A stretch of 64,000 bases of DNA from a virus (taxonomy: Duplodnaviria; Heunggongvirae; Uroviricota; Caudoviricetes). The stretch is from IMG/VR virus record IMGVR_UViG_3300036884_000676; one strand, written 5' to 3'. A program made the position numbers and the translations under genes. A model generated the notes under the pieces. The model saw only the letters and a list, made by a program, of their open reading frames with translations, did not search any database and had not been told where the DNA came from. Below, one piece after another: positions 2,354 through 60,456 of this stretch (the first letter of the stretch is position 1; the number at the start of each line of letters is the position of its first letter).

Positions 2354-3097
2354 ATGAAGAATATCCTGACATACAATGAATTTATAAATGAAGATTATCG
2401 TGATGTTGTTGGTTGTGGTAGTGGGGGTATACACGCGGATGACCGTCAACAACCTATTATAGCAAGTGGTAAATATAGTAGTGGAAGTATTACCAGTATT
2501 AGTAGTATCGGTGATTGGAACGGAGATAAAAAGGTATTAGGAACAGAAGAAATAAAGGATGTTAAGAGTGATTATTTTAATCAAAGAAGAAGGAGAAAAA
2601 AGAAAGAAACACCAATAGAAGAAGAAAAGAAAAAGAGAATGAGAAGAAAAGTATATAAAAATTTATTAGCTCTTGATAAAGCGGTAGAAGAAGATAAAGA
2701 TAATAATATAACAACAAAATTTGCTGATTTTAAAGAGGATAAAATAAAGAAATTCGACAAGACCAAGGAATTTGATCCCTTATCCGATGATATCATGGTA
2801 TTTCAAGAACTCGAAGATGGTGAAATTGAAAAAGTTAAAGAACCAGTAAAAATTTTACAAGTCACTGGAATCATAACTGATCCAGAAAAGATTAAGAAAC
2901 TTGAATCTGTTAGTGGTGGACCTGTTTTTTCTACCGAATTAAAAGTAAAATCTGTTAAAAGAGGTGATATAATATGGTTAACAGCCTTATTGGAAAGACC
3001 ACATGCAACTACATCTTGGAATGCTCAAACAATGGGTGTAATCAAAGCAAGAGTTGTTGATTACTATTACGGTTTAAATAAATTGAAATATGTATGA
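2354..3097 (+). CDS. basic internal-protein-like protein with CTS-like leader
   Basis: N-terminus MKNILTYNEFINE| followed by a Gly/Ser-rich segment. Highly basic stretch RRRRKKKETPIEEEKKKRMRRK. The ATGA overlap with the upstream ORF is typical of phage gene junctions. Confidence 0.5.
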   Translation: MKNILTYNEFINEDYRDVVGCGSGGIHADDRQQPIIASGKYSSGSITSISSIGDWNGDKKVLGTEEIKDVKSDYFNQRRRRKKKETPIEEEKKKRMRRKVYKNLLALDKAVEEDKDNNITTKFADFKEDKIKKFDKTKEFDPLSDDIMVFQELEDGEIEKVKEPVKILQVTGIITDPEKIKKLESVSGGPVFSTELKVKSVKRGDIIWLTALLERPHATTSWNAQTMGVIKARVVDYYYGLNKLKYV

Positions 3098-16073: not shown

Positions 16074-16264
16074 TGAAAATGAAAATACCAGTAGCAATAA
16101 TAGTTTTTGTTACGATGTTATTCGAATTTTTAATGAGTATTTGTTTGTTCATTGTACAGGATTACATTATGTCCATAGTTTTATTCACTATATCTGGAAT
16201 ATTATTTTGGATATTAATAATTTTAATTAAAAAACTAATAAATGAATCTCGAAGAGAAGATTAA
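16073..16264 (+). CDS. small membrane protein
   Basis: 63 aa, two hydrophobic helices. ATGA overlap with the upstream gene. Confidence 0.35.
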   Translation: MKMKIPVAIIVFVTMLFEFLMSICLFIVQDYIMSIVLFTISGILFWILIILIKKLINESRRED

Positions 16265-16688
16265 TTCCGATATCAAAGAATCAATTTTAAGACAAGAAAA
16301 CGAAAAATTAGAGGCTCTTAGATTGATTAAATCTACTATTCAGGTTGAAAAAGCCAAAGATGGTAAAGAACTATTGACTGATGAACAAGTAATGAAAGTT
16401 ATTCAGAAAATGGTTAGTCAGAGTACAGAATCCGCTACTCAATATGCTCAAGGGGGTAGAGTGGATTTGGTTGATCATGAAATGCTTCTTATTACAGTCT
16501 ATAAAACATATCTTCCAGAACAATTATCAGTTGAAGAAATCACTGAAAAAGTGAAAGAAATCATAACTGAAACTGGAGCCACTTCAATTCGTGATATGGG
16601 TAAGGTGATGGGTGTGGCCACCAAATTCTTTTCTGGTCGTGCAGATAATAAAACTATTGGTTCAATCGTAAAAACTATACTATCATAA
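16242..16688 (+). CDS. YqeY/GatB-like domain protein
   Basis: Close match to the GatB_Yqey domain pattern: LRLIKSTIQ...LTDEQVMKVIQKMV...YKTYLPEQLSVEEITEKVKEIITETGATSIRDMGKVMGVATKFFSGRADNKTIGSIVKTIL. Confidence 0.8.
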   Translation: MNLEEKINSDIKESILRQENEKLEALRLIKSTIQVEKAKDGKELLTDEQVMKVIQKMVSQSTESATQYAQGGRVDLVDHEMLLITVYKTYLPEQLSVEEITEKVKEIITETGATSIRDMGKVMGVATKFFSGRADNKTIGSIVKTILS

Positions 16689-17227: not shown

Positions 17228-17398
17228 ATGAGTAAAGAAGATTTATTAAAAATATGGCAACAAAGGGCAAAAGAATTACACGAAATTGCTGATAATGAGA
17301 GGATAAATTTTCCAGATAGAATTGAAGCCGGTGCAAAAGCAAATCAATTATTACAATGTATGCTCGATATAAAACAATTTTTAGAGGAAAAAATATGA
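17228..17398 (+). CDS. small hypothetical protein (56 aa, not in the ORF track)
   Basis: Manual translation: MSKEDLLKIWQQRAKELHEIADNERINFPDRIEAGAKANQLLQCMLDIKQFLEEKI. Its stop overlaps the PPK2 ATG in an ATGA junction. Confidence 0.3.
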   Translation: MSKEDLLKIWQQRAKELHEIADNERINFPDRIEAGAKANQLLQCMLDIKQFLEEKI

Positions 17399-18237
17399 AT
17401 ATAAAACAATTTGAAATAAACGGTAAGGGAAAAGTTGATATTAATTTAAATGATATTGATTTGAATGATGTCGATTCCGATATTACCGAACAAATAGAGG
17501 GGAACATAAAAAGCCTCATTGATTTACAGGATAAGTTATATGCTGATGGTAAATATTCAATACTATTAATTATTCAAGCGCTTGATACGGCTGGTAAAGA
17601 CGGAATCGTTAAGCATGTAATGTCGGGTCTTAATCCCCAAGCAACTCAGGTTTATAGTTTTAAACAACCCACTTCAGAGGAATTGAATCATGATTTCTTA
17701 TGGAAAGCTCACAAAAGTTTACCAGAGAGAGGACACATTGGTATCTTTAATCGTTCCTATTATGAAGAAGTTCTCGTAGTTAAGGTTCATGATCTGATAA
17801 AATTTCAGAGAATTCCAACCGTTTTGATTCATAAGGATATCTTTGAAGAAAGATATGAACAGATAAGAAATTTTGAAAAGATGCTTCATAAAAATGGAAC
17901 AGTCGTTATAAAAATATTCTTGAACATATCCAAAAAAGAACAAAAAGAAAGATTACTGGAGAGGATTGATGATAAATCTAAGAATTGGAAATTTTCGGAA
18001 TCTGACTTAAAAGAGCGTCAGTTCTGGGGTGATTATATGAAATGTTATGAAGATCTGATTAATGAAACATCCACCGATGATTGTCCTTGGTATGTTGTTC
18101 CGGCCAATCATAAAAAAACATCACGACTTATTGTTTCGAAAATTTTGGTTGAGAGAATGAAAAAATTAAATCTGGAATATCCTCAATTAACAAAAGAGCA
18201 AGAACAGAATTTATTGAAATGTAAGGAACAATTATAA
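17395..18237 (+). CDS. ppk2: polyphosphate kinase 2 (PPK2)
   Basis: PPK2 Walker A-like motif ALDTAGKDG and a conserved core (SFKQPTSEELNHDFLWKAHKSLPERGHIGIFNRSYYEEVLVVKVH). The probable start is the ATG at 17395 (MNIKQFE) rather than the track start at 17356. Confidence 0.85.
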   Translation: MNIKQFEINGKGKVDINLNDIDLNDVDSDITEQIEGNIKSLIDLQDKLYADGKYSILLIIQALDTAGKDGIVKHVMSGLNPQATQVYSFKQPTSEELNHDFLWKAHKSLPERGHIGIFNRSYYEEVLVVKVHDLIKFQRIPTVLIHKDIFEERYEQIRNFEKMLHKNGTVVIKIFLNISKKEQKERLLERIDDKSKNWKFSESDLKERQFWGDYMKCYEDLINETSTDDCPWYVVPANHKKTSRLIVSKILVERMKKLNLEYPQLTKEQEQNLLKCKEQL

Positions 18238-19555: not shown

Positions 19556-20455
19556 CTAAAATTTTCTAATTTTTTCTACGAAGCTGAATAATTTTCTAAT
19601 ATATTCATCTTTCTTATATGAACTGGTCATTAAATAAACACAATAAACAAAATACATCATTTTATTAATTACAATATTTTCATTTATATTTTCTCCACCA
19701 ACTTGACGAAATTCTACATAGTTTTTATTGAATAATTTCCAAAAATTAATATTATAAGTTTTTTGAGTGGATGTAAATATTTTTTGAATAATTTGTTCAA
19801 TAAGGTTCTCTATTTGATTCTTATTCATGTCAGTTATATTTCTATTATTAGATGTCTTTTGATAATTTTTATCATTGTTTATTATCATCATAAAAATCTC
19901 AGTCTTTAAACTACTACAATATCCACAGGTTTTTCGAGCTTCAATGTTTTTAAATGTATAATCATCCGATAACATCATAACACCTTTAACAACATTCCAT
20001 CTTGATTTCGGTTTTTTTGTACCGATATTAATATGAATACTTGTTTTATCATTAAAAAACCATTTATTTTGTTTTTCAAAATCTTCGAAAAATATTTTAA
20101 TGAATTCTTTAGATTCTTGTAAGCTATGAAATGGTGGAGTTACAAATTCCATTCCAGATGAAACTGTCCCTTCATAATGATATTCCAAAATATCGAAATA
20201 TTTTCGGAAGAAATTTGGAAAATTATTTTTGATATCCATCACTTTTCTTCTATCCTGAATCGATAATACATTTAATTTCTTCGATTCATTGGTTATTATT
20301 TTTGGGGGAGTAGGTAGACTTCTAATTCTTCTATGGTCAGTGTCCATTTCAATTTCAAATCCGATGGTAAAATAGTCATCCAAAGTCTCTAACAACGAAA
20401 CATCTTTTTTCTGAAATTCCAAGAGAAATTCATCATATGTTCTAAAATTTTTCAT
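19556..20455 (-). CDS. CTS-leader protein (putative virion-packaged internal protein)
   Basis: N-terminus MKNFRTYDEFLLE|FQKK. 299 aa. First gene of a minus-strand operon with overlapping stops and starts. Confidence 0.5.
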   Translation of the reverse strand: MKNFRTYDEFLLEFQKKDVSLLETLDDYFTIGFEIEMDTDHRRIRSLPTPPKIITNESKKLNVLSIQDRRKVMDIKNNFPNFFRKYFDILEYHYEGTVSSGMEFVTPPFHSLQESKEFIKIFFEDFEKQNKWFFNDKTSIHINIGTKKPKSRWNVVKGVMMLSDDYTFKNIEARKTCGYCSSLKTEIFMMIINNDKNYQKTSNNRNITDMNKNQIENLIEQIIQKIFTSTQKTYNINFWKLFNKNYVEFRQVGGENINENIVINKMMYFVYCVYLMTSSYKKDEYIRKLFSFVEKIRKF

Positions 20456-20892
20456 AAATATCTTATTGATGTTTCTTTTGTTATTTTTTCTTTGAATACT
20501 TCTTTAAATTTACTTGAATCAATTCCCATAATTACAAATGTTCCTACTGCATTGTAAGAATCTAACCATGTTTCAAAAAATGATCTGTTCCCATCATCAT
20601 CATCAACTACCCATTCTAAATTTAATATTTCTTCATCTATCACAATTTCAAACACGACAGCCGTTAATTTATCGTATTCCTTATCCCCATTATGTATCAT
20701 TCCCTCTGTTCGACTTATAGCGTGATATTGAGCATGTTCTTCTTCATCTGTTACAAATAAATAACTTTTCTCCAATTCTCTCCAAGTTTCTAAGGTAGTA
20801 CCATGATACATTTTTTTACCAAATAATTCTTCTTTGGTTTTTATGTTGGTAGATTCAAGTAAAAAGTCTTTAAATGTTTTAAAATGGTCCAT
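20452..20892 (-). CDS. CTS-leader H-G-T motif protein (ART-fold-like paralog)
   Basis: N-terminus MDHFKTFKDFLLE|S, then KKMYHGTT. Confidence 0.5.
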   Translation of the reverse strand: MDHFKTFKDFLLESTNIKTKEELFGKKMYHGTTLETWRELEKSYLFVTDEEEHAQYHAISRTEGMIHNGDKEYDKLTAVVFEIVIDEEILNLEWVVDDDDGNRSFFETWLDSYNAVGTFVIMGIDSSKFKEVFKEKITKETSIRYL

Positions 20893-21472
20893 CTATGAAT
20901 TTTATATTCTTTTTATCATATACTCCATATGATATGCCATAATCCTCTTTTTCAGTTATATAATCTGTTAAAGAATTTTGAAAATATTGAAATGAATTGT
21001 ATTTCAAATAATTATGTATGAAATAATCGAAATACTTACTTGATTCTACATGACGAGTGTATATGGTATCAAAAAATTCTCCCATCTGAATAGTATCTTT
21101 AAATTCACTTTCAAAATTATAATTCTGTAATTCTCTCAAATATGTTGGATTCTTATTCTCTAATATGATACGAAAATCATTTAAAAGACGGTTCGCTTCA
21201 AATACTGGTATCTCACGATTCATGTCCAATAAAGGTTCTTCCAATGTTATTTCAAATTTACAAGTATATATTTTTTTACCTCCCCTCATCGGATAAAATC
21301 TTATATCTGGACTGCTGGAAAAATAAATGGCACGACCAAATATGGAAATATCACTACTATGGTCCATTTTGAAATCAGCTTTTAACATATGTTCCAATTG
21401 GTTAGATAAGTGATAAGCTATTACTTTCTTACCCCCCTTAGCTTCCAATAAAAATTCAGTAAATGTTTTCAT
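20879..21472 (-). CDS. CTS-leader protein
   Basis: N-terminus MKTFTEFLLE|AKGG, nearly identical to the T4 internal-protein CTS MKTYQEFIAE. Downstream AYHLSN...GRAIYFSSSPD resembles the H-G-[ST] paralog family. Confidence 0.55.
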   Translation of the reverse strand: MKTFTEFLLEAKGGKKVIAYHLSNQLEHMLKADFKMDHSSDISIFGRAIYFSSSPDIRFYPMRGGKKIYTCKFEITLEEPLLDMNREIPVFEANRLLNDFRIILENKNPTYLRELQNYNFESEFKDTIQMGEFFDTIYTRHVESSKYFDYFIHNYLKYNSFQYFQNSLTDYITEKEDYGISYGVYDKKNIKFIDGPF

Positions 21473-25014: not shown

Positions 25015-25431
25015 ATGGAAAAACCGAAACAAGTAATTGTTATGAGGAAAGACCTCAATATGAGAAAAGGTAAAATGGTATCTCAGGGCGCTCATGCCTC
25101 TTTTAAAGCCTTTTTGGATTTATGTGAAAAAGAAAACAGAATAAATTTGGAAACTGGTGAATGGAAGATGATTATCTTTCGATATAGAGGGGATGGTCCT
25201 TGGGATCAATGGTTGAATGGTATATTCACAAAAGTTGTTGTTAGTTGTGATAGTGAATCAGAATTACTTGATTTATATCAAAAATCCAAAGATAAAGGAT
25301 TACCTTGTTCTTTGATTACGGACTCTGGTCTGACCGAATTTGATGGTGTTCCAACGAATACTTGTATTGCAATAGGGCCATCTTATCCAGAAACAATAGA
25401 TGAAATAACAGGACATTTGAAATTATTATGA
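25015..25431 (+). CDS. pth2: peptidyl-tRNA hydrolase, PTH2 family
   Basis: VIVMRKDLNMRKGKMVSQGAHAS matches the PTH2 N-terminal signature (V.V.R.DL.MGKGK.AAQ..HA). Confidence 0.75.
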   Translation: MEKPKQVIVMRKDLNMRKGKMVSQGAHASFKAFLDLCEKENRINLETGEWKMIIFRYRGDGPWDQWLNGIFTKVVVSCDSESELLDLYQKSKDKGLPCSLITDSGLTEFDGVPTNTCIAIGPSYPETIDEITGHLKLL

Positions 25432-46490: not shown

Positions 46491-47258
46491 ATGGAGCCTC
46501 ATATAATTTCAGTAAGTCGTAGAGAAGATATTCCCGCATTCCGTGGCGATTGGTTCATGGAGAAAATAAAAAAGGGGTATGTTAATATGGTAAATCCTTG
46601 GTCAACATATACCATATCTTTCGAAAAAGTGAAATTGGCTGTATTCTGGTCGAAGAATCCAAGACCTTTTATGAAATATCTGGATTCTTTACCATTCAAA
46701 TATTATTTCCAATTTACATTAAATGGATATCCAGAATATGAATTAGAAGTCCCACCGATATTAGAAAGAATTGAAACTTTCAAGGAATTATCAGATAAAA
46801 TAGGTAGGGAGTGTGTAATATGGAGATTTGACCCGATTATTATTTCTGATAAAATAACAGAAGAAAAACTTTTAAGAAGAATTGAAAAAATTGGGAATGA
46901 AATACATAATTATACAGAAAAACTTGTATTTAGTTATATTGATCCCTATAAAAAATTGGGTAATAAATTCAAAGAAGTTCCTGATGATGTTAAAATTAGA
47001 ATTTCTAAACAATTAATAGAATTCAATAAAGATTGGGGATTGAAATTAGCCACCTGTGCCGAATCAATTAATTTGGATGGTATAGAACATAATAAATGTG
47101 TAGATCCTGAATTAATTGAACGAATATGTGGAAAACAAAGATGGATAACGAGTACAAAGGATAAAAATCAAAGAACTGAATGTGGATGTATCCAAAGTGG
47201 AGATATAGGAACATTTAAAACCTGTAAGCATCATTGTACATACTGTTACGCTTGTTAA
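46491..47258 (+). CDS. DUF1848-like protein with C-terminal Cys cluster
   Basis: The N-terminus HIISVSRREDIPAFRGDWFMEKIKKGYV resembles the DUF1848 signature (IISASRRTDIPAFY.EWF). C-terminal CKHHCTYCYAC. Confidence 0.5.
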   Translation: MEPHIISVSRREDIPAFRGDWFMEKIKKGYVNMVNPWSTYTISFEKVKLAVFWSKNPRPFMKYLDSLPFKYYFQFTLNGYPEYELEVPPILERIETFKELSDKIGRECVIWRFDPIIISDKITEEKLLRRIEKIGNEIHNYTEKLVFSYIDPYKKLGNKFKEVPDDVKIRISKQLIEFNKDWGLKLATCAESINLDGIEHNKCVDPELIERICGKQRWITSTKDKNQRTECGCIQSGDIGTFKTCKHHCTYCYAC

Positions 47259-50003: not shown

Positions 50004-50477
50004 ATGACATACAAAATTATATTTTTGGATTTTGATGGTGTGTTAATTCCAGCCAGTGCCAAGGGATTCAATATGAGAAATATTGACAATCTCAATGAAC
50101 TTATTCGTAAAACGGGGGCTAAAATAGTTGTAACCTCAGATTGGAAAAGAAAACACGATGTTACAAAAATTTTATATGATAATGGTGTTAAAGGTGAAAT
50201 ACTTGGAATCACTCCGAATTTTTCGATTAAAGAAGATGAAACCATTAAAGTTCCCAAAGGATTAGAAATTAAAGAATGGTTAAATAAGTTTAATTCATTC
50301 GATGGTGAAAATGAACTAAAATATGTTACGAATTATGTTATCTTAGATGACCATCATATTGATATGTTAGTTGAACAAATAGACAATATGGTGGAAATAG
50401 ATCAGACTAAAGGATTCGATGGTAAAGCTCTGAAAGACGCTATATCCATATTAATAAGAGATGAAATAATTATTTAA
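50004..50477 (+). CDS. HAD-superfamily phosphatase-like protein
   Basis: Motif I FLDFDGVL (DxDG). Later VVTSDW and DDHHID. Confidence 0.4.
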   Translation: MTYKIIFLDFDGVLIPASAKGFNMRNIDNLNELIRKTGAKIVVTSDWKRKHDVTKILYDNGVKGEILGITPNFSIKEDETIKVPKGLEIKEWLNKFNSFDGENELKYVTNYVILDDHHIDMLVEQIDNMVEIDQTKGFDGKALKDAISILIRDEIII

Positions 50478-50495
50478 AAAAGAAATACTACACGG

Positions 50496-51380
50496 ATGGA
50501 ATGGGATGCAATAAAATGGGCACAAACCTATAAAACTTCAAATCTTAACAGAAGAAAAGAACTTTTGATTGATGTTTGGGAAAACACGATTAAAATCGTT
50601 AAGAATGGAAAATACTTCTCGGATGGAGAAGTTATCATTGACAACTCGAAAGTGTGCCAGAACTCTTTATTTACTGAAAATGGCCCAATTTATGACCCAA
50701 CGGGGATAAATGACTTTAAAACTGAAATATTGGTCATGGATGCTGATTGTTTGGATGTAGCAAGAACGATGGAAAATCCGATAGTTTTAAATATGGCCAG
50801 TTATAAGAATCCCGGTGGTGGTGTAATAAATGGTTCATCGGCACAGGAAGAAAATTTATTCAGAAGAACCAATTTATTTAAATCTCTTTATCAATATGTT
50901 GATTATGCTCATCAGTATGGAATAGAACAAAATTCTAAATACAAATATCCATTGGGTGATTATGGTGCAATCTATTCAAAAGATATAACCGTTTTTCGTG
51001 GTTCTGAAAAAAATGGATATTATTTACTCTCCCATCCATTCAAATGTGCTTTTATATCTGTACCTGCAATAAAAAGACCAGAATTGAAGAATAGAAGAAT
51101 GAATGAAAATGACTTCTCCAAAACCAAACAAAAAATAAGAAGGATTTTTCAATTCGCTCATGAGAATGGACATAGAGATTTAGTTCTTTCCGCTTTTGGT
51201 TGTGGTGCTTATGGAAATCCACCCGAACAGATAGCTTCAATCTTTAAAGAATTATTAGATACTGAATATAAAGGGGTTTTTCATAAGATAGTATTCGCTA
51301 TCTATGATGATCATAACTCATATAAAGAACACAATCCAGATGGAAATTTAAAACCATTCAAGAAAATATTTAATATATAA
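50496..51380 (+). CDS. bacterial-type poly(ADP-ribose) glycohydrolase (DUF2263 macrodomain)
   Basis: NMASYKNPGGGVINGSSAQEENLFRRTNLFKSL carries the PARG GGG-X7-QEE catalytic signature. The C-terminal LVLSAFGCGAYGNP also matches bacterial PARGs. Confidence 0.75.
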   Translation: MEWDAIKWAQTYKTSNLNRRKELLIDVWENTIKIVKNGKYFSDGEVIIDNSKVCQNSLFTENGPIYDPTGINDFKTEILVMDADCLDVARTMENPIVLNMASYKNPGGGVINGSSAQEENLFRRTNLFKSLYQYVDYAHQYGIEQNSKYKYPLGDYGAIYSKDITVFRGSEKNGYYLLSHPFKCAFISVPAIKRPELKNRRMNENDFSKTKQKIRRIFQFAHENGHRDLVLSAFGCGAYGNPPEQIASIFKELLDTEYKGVFHKIVFAIYDDHNSYKEHNPDGNLKPFKKIFNI

Positions 51381-51387
51381 TCACATT

Positions 51388-51972
51388 ATGACAAATTTAT
51401 ACATTGATGAATTGGATTTCGAAGATGATGAAAATATCAAAATTATTGATTTTCCAATAACAAGACAAGCCTATTCATATACTTGTGGTTGTGATATAGT
51501 AGAAAGAACAATGGAATTTTATGGTGAAAATTTTCGTGAATCTGATTTAGTTGAAATTTTGAAAACTAACGAAGAAGAAGGAACACTTGTAAAAAACATA
51601 GTGAAATTTTTTCATTATCATGATCTAAAGACTGAATTACAACAAGATATGACAATTGATGATCTGATTAAATATGTGGATAAGAACATTCCAGTAATTG
51701 TTTTGATACAAGCTTGGGGAACTGATTTTAAATTCAAAAGAAAATATAAAGAAACTTGGGGAGATGGACATTTTGTGGCTGTAATTGGATACACAGATAA
51801 ACTTTTATTAATTAGTGATCCGTCTTTATTTAATGTCGGATATATACCAAAATCTGAATTTATGAACAGATGGCATGACATTGATGATGGACTTGAAACA
51901 TATCAACTCGGATTGGCTGTTTTTGGAAGAAAAGCAATATTTGATAAAGATAAGTTAGAAAGAGTCAGATGA
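51388..51972 (+). CDS. papain-like cysteine peptidase (C39/C1-like)
   Basis: Q...YSYTCGCDIV is a nucleophile Cys context. DGHFVAVIGY resembles papain DHAVAAVGY around the catalytic His. Confidence 0.5.
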   Translation: MTNLYIDELDFEDDENIKIIDFPITRQAYSYTCGCDIVERTMEFYGENFRESDLVEILKTNEEEGTLVKNIVKFFHYHDLKTELQQDMTIDDLIKYVDKNIPVIVLIQAWGTDFKFKRKYKETWGDGHFVAVIGYTDKLLLISDPSLFNVGYIPKSEFMNRWHDIDDGLETYQLGLAVFGRKAIFDKDKLERVR

Positions 51973-52166
51973 TTTCAAAAGAATTTTGGACAGAGATCGA
52001 AAAAGAACTTAACGATGCTTATCACAATCCTCAGTTAATAGAAAAAAATGACATTAATACTTTTACTGATTCAATAGTATCAAGAATTATCAATGAAGAT
52101 AGGTCAGATAAACTTCAAATCATTTTAGATGAAAAGGATGATAAAAAAACCCAATTTGATAAATAG
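51969..52166 (+). CDS. hypothetical protein
   Basis: 65-aa ORF. Confidence 0.3.
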   Translation: MISKEFWTEIEKELNDAYHNPQLIEKNDINTFTDSIVSRIINEDRSDKLQIILDEKDDKKTQFDK

Positions 52167-52404
52167 TATACATAGACTAAGACGAATAAATAAAGAATAT
52201 TATAAGAATATGTATAATCTAAATTGGGACTTATGGGATGATTGTATAAAAGGAAAAAATCGTCCTGATCTTTTAAGTTCAAATTTAATAAAAAATAATT
52301 TTACAATATTTGATTGGGATTTAGATGATTATTTTGTTATGTCAGAAGCAATAACAAAAAACAAAGACAGATCAAATACACTTAAAACTATTTTAGATGA
52401 ATGA
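52129..52404 (+). CDS. hypothetical protein
   Basis: 91-aa ORF. Confidence 0.3.
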   Translation: MKRMIKKPNLINSIHRLRRINKEYYKNMYNLNWDLWDDCIKGKNRPDLLSSNLIKNNFTIFDWDLDDYFVMSEAITKNKDRSNTLKTILDE

Positions 52405-52732
52405 AAATGAATTTAATTGGGATAATTTCTGGAAAGAATATCATGATTTTGAATTGGATAAAAGAAAATCCGAATCTATTGAGACAGGTTTAAGTTTTTT
52501 AGATAATTTATTTAAGAAAGGAATATCCAAGAATAAAATAACTATTATAACTGGAAAATCCGAATATAATTATAATTATTTATCAGAATTCGTGGATTTA
52601 TATAATTCAAGACAAAATAATACATTTAAAGTGTTTTTTGGAAATGACACAGATATATTAGAAGCCAGATTAATAAATTACATAAGATCTGAAAAACTCA
52701 ATGATATTTTGAATGATGGATTTCCTGGATAA
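52397..52732 (+). CDS. hypothetical protein (paralog family member 1)
   Basis: C-terminus YIRSEKLNDILND shared with the next two ORFs. Confidence 0.35.
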   Translation: MNENEFNWDNFWKEYHDFELDKRKSESIETGLSFLDNLFKKGISKNKITIITGKSEYNYNYLSEFVDLYNSRQNNTFKVFFGNDTDILEARLINYIRSEKLNDILNDGFPG

Positions 52733-53084
52733 ATTTTTGATCGGAAAATCTGAATCTATGATTCAGGATGTTAATAATATTAGAAATGATATTATTGAGA
52801 TTGATGATGAAACCTTAGAATTTTTAAATGAAGAGAATCAAAGATATTCTCGTGAAATGGATTTTGACTATATCCCACCACCTTATAAACCACTATTCGG
52901 AGAAACGATTTTAGGAATTAGACTATGGCACGAACATTCTTGTGAATTATTTACAACTGAGTTTAATCTGGAAAATATTAATGTTAGTGGATTAGCAACT
53001 CGTGTTTTTCGTGGAATTGATTTAGTTGCAAAACTACAAAATCATATTAGATACAAAAAATTAGAAAAAATATTAAATGATTGA
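52713..53084 (+). CDS. hypothetical protein (paralog family member 2)
   Basis: MMDFLDKFLIGKSE...FGETILGI...IRYKKLEKILND. Confidence 0.4.
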   Translation: MMDFLDKFLIGKSESMIQDVNNIRNDIIEIDDETLEFLNEENQRYSREMDFDYIPPPYKPLFGETILGIRLWHEHSCELFTTEFNLENINVSGLATRVFRGIDLVAKLQNHIRYKKLEKILND

Positions 53085-53475
53085 TATGAATTTTTTAGAT
53101 AAATTTTTGATTGGGAAATCGGTTGAACCAGATATTAAAAATCATATTTGGTGTAATTTATTTGAAACCAATGAAAAAGATATTGATGGAATTTTGGAAT
53201 TTTTATCTCAAGAAAATAAAAAATATTGTGAAGAAATGAATTGGGATTCATGGAAATTTAATTATAGAAAACCAAAATTCGGGGAAACAATAATCGGAAT
53301 TGGAACAAAAAGTGCAGCTGGTACTGAAATGTATAATTCTTGTTATATAATTACAACTGACTTTATGAATAGACCAGATGGATTCGTATCTCATTGTTAT
53401 TCGGGTCATGAAATATCAGAAAAAATACAAAATTTCATTAGATCTCAAAAATTAAAATCGTTGTTAAATGATTGA
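53077..53475 (+). CDS. hypothetical protein (paralog family member 3)
   Basis: MIDMNFLDKFLIGKSVE...FGETIIGI...IRSQKLKSLLND. A tandem duplicate of the previous ORF. Confidence 0.4.
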   Translation: MIDMNFLDKFLIGKSVEPDIKNHIWCNLFETNEKDIDGILEFLSQENKKYCEEMNWDSWKFNYRKPKFGETIIGIGTKSAAGTEMYNSCYIITTDFMNRPDGFVSHCYSGHEISEKIQNFIRSQKLKSLLND

Positions 53476-54202
53476 TATAAATAAAATATATTTCGATAAT
53501 TGTTTACATCTAATGCCTGATATTGATACTCATATTGTTGATATGATTCTTGCTGATTTACCATACGGAGTCACAAGAAACAAGAAAGATATTATGATCC
53601 CATTTGAATTACTCTGGAAGAACTACAATCGAATTATAAAACCGAATGGATGTATTGCTTTATTCGCTCAGGGAATGTTCGCTCACAAACTTGCTTTATC
53701 TAATGAGAAAATGTATCGTTATGATTTGATATGGAAAAAAGGAGAAAGGGTCACTGGATTTTTAAATGCAAAAAAACAAATACTTAGAAACCATGAGCAA
53801 ATTTTGATTTTCTATAAAAAACAACCAACTTACCATCCACAATTTACAGAGGGGACACCTCAGCATTCAAAAGGTAACGCTTTTTCTTTCAAAGAAGGAA
53901 AAAATCAAAATTATGGTTATTTTGATTCGAAAATTCCAGATATAAGAAAAGGAACTACACAAAAATATCCGAAAAGTGTTTTAAACTTCGAAAAACCTTG
54001 GCCACCTGTACATAGAACCCAAAAACCAGTAAAATTGTGTGAATGGTTAATATTGACCTTTACGAATCCCGGAGAATTAGTACTGGATAACACTTGTGGT
54101 ATTGGAACAACCTGTATAGCAGCTAAGAATACAGGAAGAAATTTCATAGGAATTGAAAATGATGAAGAATTTTATAATATGGATTATTATCATTTGTTAT
54201 GA
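53468..54202 (+). CDS. DNA N6-adenine/N4-cytosine methyltransferase (beta class)
   Basis: Motif IV ILADLPYG (DPPY-like) precedes motif I VLDNTCGIGTT. The C-terminal GRNFIGIE is typical of N-methyltransferases with the circularly permuted beta-class architecture. Confidence 0.75.
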   Translation: MIDINKIYFDNCLHLMPDIDTHIVDMILADLPYGVTRNKKDIMIPFELLWKNYNRIIKPNGCIALFAQGMFAHKLALSNEKMYRYDLIWKKGERVTGFLNAKKQILRNHEQILIFYKKQPTYHPQFTEGTPQHSKGNAFSFKEGKNQNYGYFDSKIPDIRKGTTQKYPKSVLNFEKPWPPVHRTQKPVKLCEWLILTFTNPGELVLDNTCGIGTTCIAAKNTGRNFIGIENDEEFYNMDYYHLL

Positions 54203-54706
54203 ATAAATATTAGAATCATCTATATCCCAACTTCCATCATTTTTAATATTCTTAATATAATTCGGGTAAAACATAATAAAATCTTTTCTAATTACATCAA
54301 TATCAGTATTGGACTTTTCAATAATTATACCATCATAATTTAACAATATCTTATTCTTTATATTAATTATCTCACTCTTCCATTCCTTAACATCATTCAT
54401 ATAATCAAACCAAGTTTCATAAATCTTTGGATTTTCTATTTTCAAATAAACTTTTAAAATTTTCGGATTTAATTTATTGTGTGTAAAAACTTTAGCAACC
54501 TTTAATGATTCAGTAAACCAACACCCTTTACTACAATCAAATATTTTATCAATAGTTGATTTATAATATTCACCTGTTCCGTGATAAGCAATTAATGGAT
54601 GATTATTTTCATCTACGACTTTACTTTCATCAAACCATTTATAAAAATTAGGATTTAAATTTTTATATTCTTCAAACATTTTTAGATATTTCATAGAATT
54701 TACCAT
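54197..54706 (-). CDS. H-G-T motif protein (ART-fold-like paralog)
   Basis: MVNSMKYLKMFEE... then PLIAYHGTGEY...KGCWFTESLKV. C-terminal ILLNYDGIIIEKS aligns with the other paralogs. Confidence 0.5.
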   Translation of the reverse strand: MVNSMKYLKMFEEYKNLNPNFYKWFDESKVVDENNHPLIAYHGTGEYYKSTIDKIFDCSKGCWFTESLKVAKVFTHNKLNPKILKVYLKIENPKIYETWFDYMNDVKEWKSEIINIKNKILLNYDGIIIEKSNTDIDVIRKDFIMFYPNYIKNIKNDGSWDIDDSNIYS

Positions 54707-56019
54707 CTTTTAGTATTAGATATCTTAAAATCTTTTATTCTATTTAAATTTTCTTCGGTTGGCATAGGATCTACATTGAATTTCTTCTTAAATTCACGCC
54801 TCGATATTCCCCAACTTTCATATCCTTTCGAATCTAAATTATTAAATACGATTCCACCACTTGTATTACTTCTCCAAACATACTGAGATTCTATTCTTAT
54901 TCCATCTAATTCATAGTTGGCCTTTTTATCATCATGATCGAAGAATTGAACCGATAATGGACTATTTGCTCCGATCCAATAATCGCCATCCACAATTTCT
55001 ATATCATCTATGGTAAATTTGTAATTTACTGGAATTTCTATGATATATTCTTTTTCTTTTTTACCAGAAACATAATCTACTTCTCCAAAAAATTCTTCTG
55101 TCTTTGGTGAAGTGACTATTTTTACCTTAGTCGGATCAACTCTCAAAATAATACCCTCTTTATTTGCGAAATAAGCAGCTATATCCCTTGATTCGGTAAA
55201 AGATAAGAATTTTCCATCCGATATTTTTGACATTCCTTTCTCAACGATAAATTGAATCAAATTATCAATGAAAGTTTTGACCCAAGTAGTATGTTTATCA
55301 TCAATCCCTTTAGCTTGTTCTTGTGATACTTTTCTTAATTGTTCAATTTCTTTACCTTTTAATCCTTGGAATACCCTTATTCCCCTATATAAATTCTTTG
55401 GAAGTTTCGGTTTATCTTTTTTTATTTTATAATGGTGATAGAAGGAATATAACCAAACATATTGAACTATGTTATTAACTTTCTTAATTGATAAATTATT
55501 TGTTATCGTATAGGCTGGAATACCATCAAAATCAACCCATCTTTTCACGACATCCTTGTGGAGATCAAAATCATATTTAGTACTTTTAGGGTTTGTATTT
55601 TTAATTTTTTCAAGATCCGTAAATCTATTTAAAAATCTAAGTCCATTTGTAGAATTCACATCACCAAACACATTTCTACTTTCTAATCCACCAGAGGCAA
55701 CAATTAACATAGCTGTTTGTTGTCTGAGATCTTTAAAAATGCTAGCTCCCTCCTTTGGAATTTTTTGTCCTATCTGAGCGACAGTATGTAATAAAGATTT
55801 ACTAACTGAATCCTTCCAATTAAGAATCATATTCTCTCTGATTTGAGTATATTTATTAAAGTCCATTCCCATCAAATTAACGAGTTCTTCTTCAGTATTA
55901 AAACCAGTTTTTATGGAATTTTTTAACTTTTCCTTAAATTCTGACCAATCAGTAAATTTTATCGAATCATTGAATTGACCATATCTTTCATTCAAAAATT
56001 CTGAGAATGAATACAACAT
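54700..56019 (-). CDS. Alt-like ADP-ribosyltransferase (R-S-E clade) with CTS-like leader
   Basis: The probable start is the internal Met at 56019, giving MLYSFSEFLNE|R. The R motif is NLYRGIRV, the S-x-S/T motif is FLSFTESRDIA and the E-x-E motif is KEKEYIIEI. The upstream part of the 569-aa track ORF overlaps a plus-strand ORF and is probably spurious. Confidence 0.5.
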   Translation of the reverse strand: MLYSFSEFLNERYGQFNDSIKFTDWSEFKEKLKNSIKTGFNTEEELVNLMGMDFNKYTQIRENMILNWKDSVSKSLLHTVAQIGQKIPKEGASIFKDLRQQTAMLIVASGGLESRNVFGDVNSTNGLRFLNRFTDLEKIKNTNPKSTKYDFDLHKDVVKRWVDFDGIPAYTITNNLSIKKVNNIVQYVWLYSFYHHYKIKKDKPKLPKNLYRGIRVFQGLKGKEIEQLRKVSQEQAKGIDDKHTTWVKTFIDNLIQFIVEKGMSKISDGKFLSFTESRDIAAYFANKEGIILRVDPTKVKIVTSPKTEEFFGEVDYVSGKKEKEYIIEIPVNYKFTIDDIEIVDGDYWIGANSPLSVQFFDHDDKKANYELDGIRIESQYVWRSNTSGGIVFNNLDSKGYESWGISRREFKKKFNVDPMPTEENLNRIKDFKISNTKRW

Positions 56020-56074
56020 AAGAAAGATTTTTTCTTTATATATTAAAAATTTTTGTAACCTTTTTGAATATCTG

Positions 56075-56350
56075 ATGTCAAATGGACAAAACAAAAAAGA
56101 GATTATGAAAAAAATTATAGTATTTTTGATGTTAATGTTTATTGGAAGTATAACATTAGCTGATGGAGACAAATCAACAAAATCAGAAGTAATTATTACC
56201 ACTACTATAACAAAAGAAATCAACATTGATATATTGAAGCCAATAGTACCATTGGAAGCCACCTTTGATGAGGATTCTCTTGATTCGATTAATATATATT
56301 CTTTAAGACCAACAACCCCAAAAGAAGCAACCTTTGATGATGAAAAATAA
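56075..56350 (+). CDS. secreted small protein with PxEATFD repeats
   Basis: Signal peptide MKKIIVFLMLMFIGSITLA. Repeated PLEATFDEDS / PKEATFDDEK. Confidence 0.35.
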   Translation: MSNGQNKKEIMKKIIVFLMLMFIGSITLADGDKSTKSEVIITTTITKEINIDILKPIVPLEATFDEDSLDSINIYSLRPTTPKEATFDDEK

Positions 56351-56612
56351 AGATCTAAATGATGATTTTTTAAAAAACCTTTTTCAAAAAACACCAGAAT
56401 GTTGTCCATCTGATGATTTTGTAGAAAAGGTTATGAATGCTTGTTGTACCGTTGAAGTAAAACAAACATTCAATATTTTTGTGTGGTTAAGAGAAAAACA
56501 ATCTAAGCTGGTGATAAGTATGACTACTGGTATAATACATTCTTTCGATAATATGTTGAAAGACTATAAACTGGTCACTCAAATTCCCCAACCAATTCAG
56601 CAATCAATTTAG
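56334..56612 (+). CDS. hypothetical protein
   Basis: 92-aa ORF with CCPSDD and ACC. Confidence 0.3.
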   Translation: MMMKNKDLNDDFLKNLFQKTPECCPSDDFVEKVMNACCTVEVKQTFNIFVWLREKQSKLVISMTTGIIHSFDNMLKDYKLVTQIPQPIQQSI

Positions 56613-58050
56613 ATTCCTCACTTTTTAATTCATCCAGAACAGCCCCATCTTTTAACATGAATTTTTTATATTTCTGTCTATCGTCATAGATAAGGCTCAT
56701 AACCTGATTTACTACTCCAATTTCATTACGGAATACAGCCCCATTTAATAGAACAATGTCGGTTGGTTCAATTTCAATTTTCTTATTATTGAATATGGCA
56801 TATTTCTTATCACTCGAAATGATACCTTTATAACTATCGACAGAGATATTGAACATTATCATACAGGTTGGATACAAACTCTTAAAGTCATAACAGGGTG
56901 TCCAATGGCTCATACCTTTAACTGGTTCTTTAACATAACCACCCAAAACACCTTCAACATCCACTACATTTTCAGAACGGTCTAATCTACAAAGAACAAC
57001 ATTCTTCTCTTTTTTCAGTTTTCTTCTTAAAATTCCCTCTGTTACAGGTAAGGTACTGTATGAATCCCCAATTTTTACTCTCGAAAGAGTTGAAATACCA
57101 TATAAAATATTGATCAATTTTGTCTTTTCATGAATCTTTTGAACAAGTACGGAGTCAACCGCGTTATAATAAACGAATTTCTTATAATCTGTATTATATA
57201 AGGTTTTAAGACTTCCTTCATAATTAACTTTCTTAACTCCAAGAACATTATCAGATACGAAGTCCAGACTAATTGATTCCTTAACTCTAATGGATGTATC
57301 CCATTTTTTGAATAGTTCCATATAGTCAACAACCATTCGATGAGCTGGTAATTCACAATATGTCTTTTTTTCCATATCCCAAGGTTCTCTCAGTAATTTT
57401 GTTACTGAAGCTACACTCGGATCTATTCCAAGTTTACGAGCTCTATTAACAAGAAAAACCCAGTCATATTCGGTAAAATTCCAACCAGTTAAAACTGGCA
57501 TTCTCGGAACAAATTTCACAAAGAAATTCAATAACATTTCATATTCACTTTTGAAATGAATATATTTGAACTGATAAATAGTTCCGAATTTGGCGAAATA
57601 ATTATTTATATCTTCTTCAATGGATTTGGAAATAACTTCAGATAATTCCTGAGTCCCCATTACCAGAACTTTATCTTTATTGACAATGGAAATGGATTGT
57701 ATGGCACTTTCAGCTAAATGAGGAGCTGGTTTTTTGTCTATAATTTCATTTTCAATATCGATGAAAAATATATCAGGTTCATTATATTGAAAAATAATAT
57801 CCTGTTCTTCCTGAGGTAATTCATCTATGTAATCATAGACGGAATAACGATTTGGATTTTTGGTGGGAACTGATTTAACTGATCGCCCATCCCATGTAAC
57901 ATACTTTCCATCTCTTTGATGGTCATCGTCATCACAGGTAATATATTTGGTGGCATTGGGCCACTTATAATATCTTAATTTTACTTGTTTACTACTATCT
58001 ACATGAGATACAATAAGTGTATTATTTCTGTATTCGTAATCTACTAACAA
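56575..58050 (-). CDS. family B DNA polymerase, N-terminal (43A-like) fragment of a split T4-type gp43
   Basis: Exo I FFIDIENE (T4 gp43 ISIETVG region), exo II TGWNFTEYDWVFLVNR (T4 TGWNIEGFDVPYIMNR), exo III YNAVDSVLV (T4 YNIIDVESV), motif A CYDFKSLYPTCMIMFNIS (T4 SFDLTSLYPSIIRQVNIS). The ORF stops about 100 aa after motif A. Motifs B (KxxxNSxYG) and C (YGDTDS) are absent. Confidence 0.85.
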   Translation of the reverse strand: MLVDYEYRNNTLIVSHVDSSKQVKLRYYKWPNATKYITCDDDDHQRDGKYVTWDGRSVKSVPTKNPNRYSVYDYIDELPQEEQDIIFQYNEPDIFFIDIENEIIDKKPAPHLAESAIQSISIVNKDKVLVMGTQELSEVISKSIEEDINNYFAKFGTIYQFKYIHFKSEYEMLLNFFVKFVPRMPVLTGWNFTEYDWVFLVNRARKLGIDPSVASVTKLLREPWDMEKKTYCELPAHRMVVDYMELFKKWDTSIRVKESISLDFVSDNVLGVKKVNYEGSLKTLYNTDYKKFVYYNAVDSVLVQKIHEKTKLINILYGISTLSRVKIGDSYSTLPVTEGILRRKLKKEKNVVLCRLDRSENVVDVEGVLGGYVKEPVKGMSHWTPCYDFKSLYPTCMIMFNISVDSYKGIISSDKKYAIFNNKKIEIEPTDIVLLNGAVFRNEIGVVNQVMSLIYDDRQKYKKFMLKDGAVLDELKSEESKLIAELVGEFE

Positions 58051-59730: not shown

Positions 59731-59944
59731 ATGCTTTAATTATTTTATTGAGAATAAATGCTTCCATATCTATCATACATTTTCCATATCCATCTGGAGT
59801 TTTTTCAGTAAAATTAGAAGCGGTATCAGCTACGGCATCATGTGAGATAGACATTGTAAAATCATTTATAGTAAAATGAAACATTCCGAATTGATATGGA
59901 TCAAAAAGAATTTTATATCCACCAAATTCAATTTCTTTTTTCAT
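59705..59944 (-). CDS. hypothetical protein
   Basis: 79-aa ORF. Confidence 0.3.
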   Translation of the reverse strand: MKKEIEFGGYKILFDPYQFGMFHFTINDFTMSISHDAVADTASNFTEKTPDGYGKCMIDMEAFILNKIIKAYEEHRNSR

Positions 59945-60456
59945 TTACTTTTTTTATTTTTCGCTGTTATAAGATCATGAATAGCCTTAATAATTTTGGC
60001 ATAAAATTTATCCAAATTGTAAACTATTTCTTGTTCTGGTCTTGCTAATTTGGTTTGAATTTCGACATCGGATATTCTCTCATATTCTTCATCACAACCT
60101 ATTACTATTTTTGTCGGTTGAGATGTACCATGTTTACCAAGTTCATATAATACAATTGGATTTAGAGATCCTTTGGAGAACCAAAAAACAATAATATCAG
60201 ATTCTCTTAATCCCTTGTATTCCCATGTTATTTGTTCTACACTGGCATTGGGATCATCAATCGGGAAATTTTTTCTACGGGGGTTAAGTACTGTAACTTG
60301 ATCTAATAAATATTTATCATATTCTTTTTTTTCAGCTTTCATTTTTTCAATGAGTTCAGCCTGCCAATCTGGACAATTGGTTATACCACCAGCCAAAAAT
60401 AATTTTAATTCATTTTCTTCCTGTGGCTTATTCGGGGCTTCTATAATTTCTAACAT
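59941..60456 (-). CDS. nucleoside 2-deoxyribosyltransferase-like protein
   Basis: LKLFLAGGITNCPDWQ and IIVFWF...NPIVLYELGK resemble the Nuc_deoxyrib_tr / DUF4406 fold (LAGPI...W, E.G.A). Confidence 0.4.
   Translation of the reverse strand: MLEIIEAPNKPQEENELKLFLAGGITNCPDWQAELIEKMKAEKKEYDKYLLDQVTVLNPRRKNFPIDDPNASVEQITWEYKGLRESDIIVFWFSKGSLNPIVLYELGKHGTSQPTKIVIGCDEEYERISDVEIQTKLARPEQEIVYNLDKFYAKIIKAIHDLITAKNKKSK

Follow-up and report, generated by a model that had tools for sequence, protein, structure and literature searches.

Bacterial-type poly(ADP-ribose) glycohydrolases (PARGs), such as those of Thermomonospora curvata (PDB 3SIG), Deinococcus radiodurans (DRB0099, PDB 5ZDA) and S. coelicolor (SCO0909), are stand-alone proteins of ~290 residues. 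SCO0909 and DRB0099 were the only tested hydrolases to reverse the 2′-OH RNA ADP-ribosylation made by RhsP2, whose linkage is that found in poly(ADP-ribose) (PAR); SCO0909 was also the most active on RNA carrying ADP-ribose (ADPr) at a 5′-phosphate, both enzymes protect E. coli from the toxin, and DRB0099 lies within a ligase/PARG/phosphatase-kinase repair operon (Lu et al. 2025, PMC11833690). Of the jumbo phages, >40% carry ADP-ribosyltransferases (ARTs) and 56% carry Macro domains, and phage G alone has at least 10 ARTs (PMC9503650); finding both classes in one large phage is to be expected. Here we analyze a 64,000-nucleotide stretch (the window) from the IMG/VR virus record IMGVR_UViG_3300036884_000676, in which positions 50,496 to 56,019 had been predicted to encode an ADP-ribosylation writer, described as an Alt-like ART with a capsid-targeting leader, and an eraser, a bacterial-type PARG. 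The enzymes and the leader stand, while the membership of the ART in the Alt family and its pairing with the PARG do not. On balance we lean towards two modules, a HAD_SAK_2-PARG clean-up pair and a separately packaged and injected ART, over a single writer-eraser cassette.

The PARG, a 294-residue protein, is encoded at 50496..51380 on the + strand, which the original prediction had not specified, and its sequence places it securely in the DUF2263/TIGR02452 family of macrodomain hydrolases. Against Pfam PARG_cat_microb (PF10021) it scores 94 bits (1.5e-26, cutoff 23.5) and against NCBIfam TIGR02452 148.4 bits (2.7e-43, cutoff 50); it also matches the solved PARGs of T. curvata (3SIG, 2e-24) and D. 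radiodurans (5ZDA, 4e-21). The homology to 3SIG, 5ZDA and SCO0909 extends over the full length, and the catalytic and diphosphate loops align residue for residue with those of 3SIG and 5ZDA. The catalytic signature in the translation, PGGGVINGSSAQEE (50811..50852, +), contains P106-GGG-VINGSSA-Q117-E118-E119, the predicted GGG-X7-QEE pattern, while the downstream block AFGCGAYGNP holds the macrodomain diphosphate loop, F234-G-C-G-A-Y-G-N, aligned to GAWGCGVFGN of 3SIG. Residues P106, G107-109, Q117, E118, E119, F234, G235, C236 and G237 are invariant in 26 homologs (43-76% identity). Unlike the cellular PARGs, to which it is ~30-35% identical over the core, this enzyme is encoded by a huge phage, and its hydrolase activity is predicted from sequence.

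The writer is a 439-residue protein of an unannotated family (54700..56019, − strand, again not given in the prediction). Its frame is open over 569 codons (54700..56409, −), and the start was placed at 56019 because homologs are 430-445 residues long and independent gene calls agree. The protein consists of the leader, an N-terminal helical/β region, a central divergent R-S-E ART domain and a C-terminal β domain. The catalytic domain (54985..55407, −) carries R212 (LYRGI) on β1, S273 (LSFTE) on β2 and E322-K-E324 at the start of β5. The predicted motifs LYRGI, SFTES and EKEYIIE are thus present in the translation in the order R, S-x-T, E-x-E, and they are conserved beyond chance: Y211-R212-G213, S273-F274 and E322/E324 are invariant in 31 homologs (36-72% identity), and the same R, S and E residues remain at least 90% conserved in family members down to ~20% identity. 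An AlphaFold model of the full-length protein has a mean predicted local distance difference test (pLDDT) score of 87.9 and a predicted TM-score of 0.81, and a model of the catalytic domain has a pLDDT of 90.2. The protein shows the split β-sheet fold and NAD+-binding cleft of ARTs. In the modeled domain R212 lies on strand E39-44, S273-F-T275 on E100-104 and E322-K-E324 on E153-157; S273 is on β2 and is followed by a helix, which is the canonical R-S-E layout. By its modeled fold and active site, then, the protein is an ART that represents a small unannotated family, and the sequence and structure evidence indicates that it resembles an R-S-E mono-ART in its predicted action.

The description of this ART as Alt-like holds for its R-S-E/ExE layout and predicted delivery and fails for its family membership. 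T4 Alt (NC_000866) matches PF03496 at 5.8e-36 and shares with the window protein the same R-S-E/ExE logic and the local motifs LYR, FxS[TF][ST] and ExE[VY]I; like Alt, the window ART is a phage protein, and it is predicted to be packaged, N-terminally processed and injected. By contrast, the ART domain of the window protein is central and not C-terminal, and there is no sequence or profile similarity between the two (hhalign of the ART family profile against T4 Alt, 0.25% probability). The 439-residue protein gave no match in Pfam, PHROGs, NCBIfam or PADLOC profiles or in a phmmer search of PDB, and tblastn against 50,697 phage records returned nothing. Two sets of 31 family members, one close and one distant, likewise gave no match to any ART family of Pfam, even at the permissive thresholds of E<=1 or E<=0.05. 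Profile searches had been proposed as the check on both enzymes; they recover PF10021 and TIGR02452 above the curated cutoffs for the PARG, and no ART profile detects the 439-residue protein, so the ART claim fails by that measure. A profile search of 1.84 billion representative proteins found 77 relatives, almost all of which share one architecture and which together form a closed family with no bridge to known ART families, and a Foldseek search of BFVD with the full-length model gave no meaningful match. The top structural match is Tpt1, with a small Z advantage over the R-S-E toxins; the model is as near to Tpt1, ART2.2 and pertussis S1 as to C3 and VIP2, and C3, VIP2 and iota toxin are not its closest neighbors. 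Tpt1 itself belongs to the H-H-h clade and has an R-H-R-R tetrad, in contrast to the R-S-ExE set of the window ART, and the two show no sequence similarity. The protein is thus outside the Alt/VIP2/C3 family; its superfamily is known, but the family that it represents is new and unannotated.

The ART begins with MLYSFSEFLNE (55987..56019, −), which motif statistics and comparison with T4 mark as a T4-type capsid-targeting leader with an L-x-E prohead-protease-type site. We defined the leader motif as [STKN][YF].[ED][FY][ILV].[EDN]. Across the whole six-frame open reading frame (ORF) space of the window (33,683 positions) there are six occurrences, each of them among the first 14 residues of an ORF that starts with ATG. 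As 9.4% of positions count as N-terminal, the chance of this distribution is ~6.8e-7, although the motif was tuned after the first examples and the true significance is somewhat weaker. The other five leader ORFs are 2354..3097 (+, MKNILTYNEFINE), 20879..21472 (−, MKTFTEFLLEA), 20452..20892 (−, MDHFKTFKDFLLES), 19556..20455 (−, MKNFRTYDEFLLEF) and 29893..30714 (−, MRIKNYKEFITEN). None of these five has a Pfam match, and they may be regarded as candidate injected proteins; three are clustered at 19556..21472 in an arrangement that resembles the T-even internal-protein locus. A terminal [IL]-x-E is the site type of the T4 prohead protease, and the leaders end in L-N-E11 in the ART, in L-L-E in three of the other proteins and in I-N-E and I-T-E in the remaining two.

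In T4, IPIII and IPII start with MKTYQEFIAEA and IPI with MKTFKEF (read from NC_000866), and among T-even internal proteins the conserved capsid-targeting sequence is the sole feature common to otherwise diverse proteins (PMC3012670). The T4 proteins IPI, IPII and IPIII thus carry the same ~10-residue leader, of the M-K-x-[YF]-x-E-F-[IL]-x-E type with an [IL]-x-E end, on unrelated, fast-evolving proteins. The leader of the window ART is nearer to IPII/IPIII than to the T4 Alt N-terminus, MELITELFDE, and the capsid-targeting leader of the original prediction is borne out by this match and by its occurrence on five other window proteins. The window leaders differ from those of the T4 internal proteins in that they are found in a ~736 kb phage of 28% GC, on cargo that is larger (146-439 residues) and includes an enzyme, and their role in packaging is predicted. 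In the ART model residues 1-12 are disordered (pLDDT <50). The leader is kept in the closest ART homologs and not in distant ones, being strict in 7 of 31. No T4-type late promoter (TATAAATA) was found upstream of the six leader genes, and no structural or gp21-type protease gene was found within the window. Taken as a whole, the leader suggests an Alt-like delivery of the ART.

A second transferase, absent from the first account of the region, lies directly downstream of the R-S-E ART. This is a stand-alone ART-PolyVal protein (54197..54706, −; PF18760 at 3e-15, 57.6 bits, cutoff 31.2; phrog_21376) of the Tox-ART-HYD2 clade, a family defined as H-Y-D (PMC5512222). Its ATG overlaps the ART stop codon, and M5, at 54694, is the likelier start. 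As in the ART-PolyVal/Tox-ART-HYD2 domains of polyvalent proteins, it keeps the H of strand 1 and the D of strand 5: H42 is invariant, and D125 is present in eight of nine aligned sequences (N in P0164). It differs from them in being a separate ORF of 165-169 residues, outside any multidomain polyvalent protein, and in having F64 at the "Y" position, which is F in most relatives too. Beyond the catalytic core, an alignment of this protein with P0162-P0168 also reveals a tail that is strongly conserved at the C-terminus, PNQIKS(I/V)xNDGSWDxxDxNIYS, and that may be an interaction or targeting element. A further paralog, P0165, is encoded on the same 736 kb contig. In locus L003 the ART homolog is followed directly by an 850-residue fusion of ART-PolyVal with PolyA_pol, and a fused form of 681 residues is found in L007, while none of L007, L013 and L014 has the small ART-PolyVal gene. 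Population variants on otherwise near-identical contigs shorten the protein to 114 residues (L009, 13793..14137) and 143 residues (L011, 5278..5709), which may reflect real decay, microdiversity or assembly error; the family-B DNA polymerase (PolB) gene is also broken in L009. Elsewhere in the window, a second, weaker ART-PolyVal/DUF3990-like ORF (35218..35718, +) matches PF18760 below the cutoff (3.6e-6, 28.2 bits) and keeps the YHGT motif. It is preceded by a SprT-like metallopeptidase (34434..35225, +), and the two domains, which are typical of polyvalent proteins, are separate genes here.

The arrangement of these genes bears directly on whether the eraser serves the writers. The window is AT-rich (~25-38% GC) and densely coding, with a rightward block of genes to ~54.2 kb and a leftward block beyond it. 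On the + strand the order is the HAD_SAK_2 phosphatase, the PARG, a C39 peptidase, five small ORFs and a DNA methyltransferase (to 54202); on the − strand, converging on the PARG block, are a PolB N-terminal fragment, the R-S-E ART and the ART-PolyVal gene, the 3′ end of which overlaps that of the methyltransferase gene. The PARG and the ARTs are thus convergent, 3.3 kb and six to seven genes apart. The RNA-repair "Swiss Army Knife"-type phosphatase (50004..50477, +; PF18143, 1.6e-22) is directly upstream of the PARG, an adjacency kept in three related loci (L007, L013 and L014; 63-68% protein identity), which retain the order DUF1848...HAD_SAK_2-PARG-(0-2 ORFs)-methyltransferase-ART(−)-PolB(−). 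By contrast, no PARG lies closer than 10 kb to the ART homologs (34-66% identity) of five other loci, and phmmer found the 439-residue ART family in only two of 79 viral PARG loci. We also took a census of Pfam families among the two neighbors on each side of the PARG in 34 de-duplicated phage-like loci (132 proteins). The neighbors included Metallophos (6), YqeY (4) and NUDIX (3), with single cases of Tpt1/KptA, NAD synthase, HAD, His_Phos and Ro60-vWA, and no protein-modifying ART family was present among the 132. As the 64 kb hold three ART-like genes, any given gene would be expected to have an ART within ±4 kb ~30% of the time. In addition, the linkages that PARGs are currently known to cleave, ribose-ribose or phosphate-linked ADPr, do not appear to match the typical products of R-S-E enzymes. 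Because the synteny is limited and the chemistry mismatched, the PARG-ART linkage looks like one of descent and not a conserved module. DarT-DarG, DraT-DraG, SirTM-macro and the Aeromonas-phage ART-ARG likewise place a transferase and an ADPr hydrolase in one neighborhood, but in those pairs the two genes are neighbors in the same orientation, are inherited together and match in their chemistry, whereas the window genes are convergent, 3.3 kb apart and linked in close relatives only. We therefore infer that the PARG and the ARTs are not functionally coupled, and the earlier suggestion that the PARG regulates the phage ARTs is not supported.

Under the two-module explanation, the rightward module would comprise the HAD_SAK_2 phosphatase and a catalytically intact PARG, with the C39 peptidase added in this lineage only. 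Since the PARG has no capsid-targeting or other packaging leader, it would be made and act inside the infected cell. By homology it is expected to hydrolyze the 1″-2′ ribose-ribose O-glycosidic bond and phosphate-linked ADPr, and it most likely strips ADPr from RNA or DNA 2′-OH groups, phosphate ends or PAR-like material, either in repair or as a counter-attack against ART toxins and defenses, with the phosphatase perhaps processing the ends or products. The HAD_SAK_2-PARG pair and the phosphoesterase, NUDIX and KptA neighborhoods of other viral PARGs seem to fit such nucleic-acid/ADPr clean-up or counter-defense. DRB0099 similarly adjoins a nucleic-acid-repair-type phosphatase, though the window neighbor is the HAD_SAK_2 phosphatase and not a ligase and HD-PNK. 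Removal of ADPr from thymidine is a DarG-type specificity. It has been assigned to the TARG1-like macrodomain SCO6735 and not to PARG (Lu et al., PMC11833690), which speaks against the proposal that this PARG reverses DarT. The leftward module would be an operon downstream of the PolB fragment, containing the R-S-E ART and the translationally coupled H-Y-D ART-PolyVal. The 439-residue ART probably enters the prohead, is cut by the prohead protease after L-N-E11 and is then injected with the DNA, and it would mono-ADP-ribosylate host targets at the start of infection. It would thus be Alt-like in deployment, though outside the Alt family.

Several other explanations compete with this one. The main rival concerns what the PARG cleaves: it could be an anti-signaling or metabolite enzyme that acts on ADPr derivatives of host NAD+ immunity (PMC9503650), such as 1″-2′ glycocyclic ADP-ribose (gcADPR), with its PAR-type linkage, in which case the ARTs would be unrelated. 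The Metallophos, NUDIX, NAD synthase and HAD phosphatase neighbors of viral PARGs are consistent with ADPr catabolism of this kind. However, none of the papers retrieved reports a PARG-family enzyme that cleaves gcADPR, the known anti-Thoeris factors are sponges, nucleic acids are the only substrates other than PAR on which DUF2263 enzymes have been shown by experiment to act, and the immediate conserved neighbor of the PARG is an RNA-repair-type HAD. We regard this reading as possible but doubtful, both for the soluble signal as the substrate of the PARG and for the explanation as a whole. PAR glycohydrolase activity is the founding activity of the family, demonstrated for 3SIG and 5ZDA, and PARP-like ARTs occur in some phages (PMC9503650), so that genuine PAR turnover, in which a PARP-like enzyme of the phage or host makes PAR and the PARG degrades it, also has to be considered. 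A PARP-PARG system was rejected, as neither the window nor the loci of its relatives yielded an H-Y-E ART; the ART-PolyVal enzymes belong to the H-Y-D class, without the elongation glutamate, and no PARP family is present among the PARG neighbors. PAR turnover of any kind is accordingly very improbable.

A dedicated writer-eraser pair, in which the PARG reverses the phage's own ART mark and provides self-immunity during late ART synthesis or limits the mark in time, would work if the ART targets nucleic-acid 2′-OH groups or phosphates, the linkages that PARGs cleave. The synteny of the four genomes and Tpt1 as the top structural match of the ART keep this idea alive, but with the convergent genes, the conservation in three close relatives only and the mismatched chemistry described above we consider it unlikely. 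A more specific version, which seems to us distinctly less probable still, is a timed cycle of RNA ADP-ribosylation, in which the leader-tagged ART is an injected writer on RNA 2′-OH groups or phosphate ends and the leaderless PARG its matched eraser. Within that cycle, it is equally speculative that the injected ART would shut down host RNA while newly made PARG and HAD phosphatase restore or protect RNA for the phage; such a writer-eraser system for RNA-ADPr would be the first to be encoded by a phage. Finally, the 439-residue protein might not be a transferase at all, acting instead as an NAD+ glycohydrolase or serving as a dead internal or structural protein with an ART-like fold. The conservation of R, S and both ExE glutamates across the family to ~20% identity argues for retained catalysis, and the ExE motif is characteristic of transferases that modify arginine, which together make this alternative improbable.

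Phage-borne PARGs had been called uncommon; they are rare in cultured phages but recur in huge ones. Relatives are found in 20 of 50,697 deposited phage records: Bacillus phage G (gp114, 35% identity), Lak megaphages, two uncultured phages of 595-642 kb and one fecal contig. The PARGs of phage G and the Lak megaphages are, like that of the window, from very large phages (497-642 kb) and are 30-35% identical to it, but they belong to other lineages and contexts and are unannotated or hypothetical in their records. IMG/VR contains 139 viral contigs with a PARG relative, mostly of 100-500 kb, plus giant-virus records. PARG relatives (31-40% identity) were also seen in five IMG/VR records of 1.8-2.5 Mb (L046, L048, L049, L050 and L056) and in three GVMAG loci (L054, L055 and L059). 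The PARG family is thus spread over very large viruses of prokaryotes and eukaryotes. The nearest relatives of the window PARG are metagenomic (60-76% identity), and the nearest named cellular homologs are from Treponema, Spirochaetia and Bacteroidota (44-49% identity). The exact protein is found on 18 contigs, the longest of 736,551 bp, and because its proteins are identical to those of this contig the window is part of a huge phage. A megablast search with a 14 kb region gave no match in GenBank phage records. The window PARG adds a new member to an established family, and large phages are already a known setting for it.

Co-occurrence of ARTs and Macro domains in jumbo phages is already documented (PMC9503650), and with the cassette idea unsupported the locus is less surprising than it first appeared. 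If our readings hold, the ART is of interest as an unannotated family of 77 members, with no Pfam, PHROGs, NCBIfam or PADLOC profile, that is confined to huge-phage-like contigs and would widen the repertoire of phage host-takeover enzymes. That at least six proteins of a ~736 kb phage carry the T4-type leader is mildly surprising, and the leader is a useful handle: if its role is as predicted, it offers a sequence-only way to list the probably injected proteins of an uncultivated phage, with six candidates in the window alone, which would otherwise be beyond study without cultivation. The recurrent PARGs of huge phages, for their part, would be candidates for counter-defense against RNA-targeting ART toxins or NAD+-derived signals, because bacterial PARGs erase RNA 2′-OH ADP-ribosylation.

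The remaining genes of the region are as follows. As predicted, a papain-like peptidase sits directly downstream of the PARG (51388..51972, +). It is a stand-alone C39-type cysteine peptidase (PF13529, Peptidase_C39_2, 7.3e-12, 46.5 bits; PF03412, 8.6e-10, 39 bits), papain-like at the level of clan CA, with an intact catalytic set (Q27/C33/H128/D144) that aligns to Q11, C17, H96 and D112 of ComA. C39 enzymes cut after Gly-Gly and not after [IL]-x-E. A role for this peptidase as leader processor or PARG partner was considered and rejected, the gene being absent from L007, L013 and L014 and from all 79 viral PARG loci. It is followed by five small, mostly lineage-specific ORFs in the ORF list (51969..53475, +); the three syntenic relatives lack them, apart from a weak match in L007 to one, 52397..52732. 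Two of the five (52713..53084 and 53077..53475) are tandem paralogs that share the N-terminus FLDKFLIGKS and a C-terminal tail, KL..(I/L)LND, which the tail of 52397..52732 resembles. The last gene of the rightward block encodes an N6/N4 DNA methyltransferase (53468..54202, +; PF01555, 1.3e-29; PADLOC MTase_II, 1.8e-61).

The PolB fragment (56575..58050, −; PF03104, PF00136; phrog_2062, phrog_262), which covers the exonuclease and the start of the polymerase, lies on the strand of the ART genes, upstream of them, and is a syntenic anchor in the relatives. The ORF is just 491 residues long, with the exonuclease and the N-terminal third or so of the polymerase domain (phrog_262 positions 103-497 of 856). 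It has the same length in L007; the gene appears to be split, its C-terminal part not being adjacent. PolB and the ART are separated by a gap of 555 nt, which holds two small + strand ORFs (56075..56350 and 56334..56612) that are called as genes on related contigs. The former has a signal-peptide- or lipoprotein-like N-terminus (MKKIIVFLMLMFIGS...) and overlaps the spurious upstream extension of the ART frame.

A scan for sigma-70 promoters and terminators in the window gave counts at or below the shuffled expectation, and a tRNA scan found none. A DUF1848 protein with a C-terminal cysteine cluster (46491..47258, +; 2.8e2 bits, 1.1e-84) is encoded upstream of the HAD-PARG block, a position kept in L007, L013 and L014. 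Accessory genes include a MazG+cytidylyltransferase-like fusion (28644..29543, −), a possible relative of NMN/NaMN adenylyltransferases, together with PPK2 (17356..18237, +), PTH2 (25015..25431, +) and a nucleoside 2-deoxyribosyltransferase-like protein (59941..60456, −). The window also contains YqeY (16242..16688, +), which is a recurrent PARG neighbor in other viral loci.

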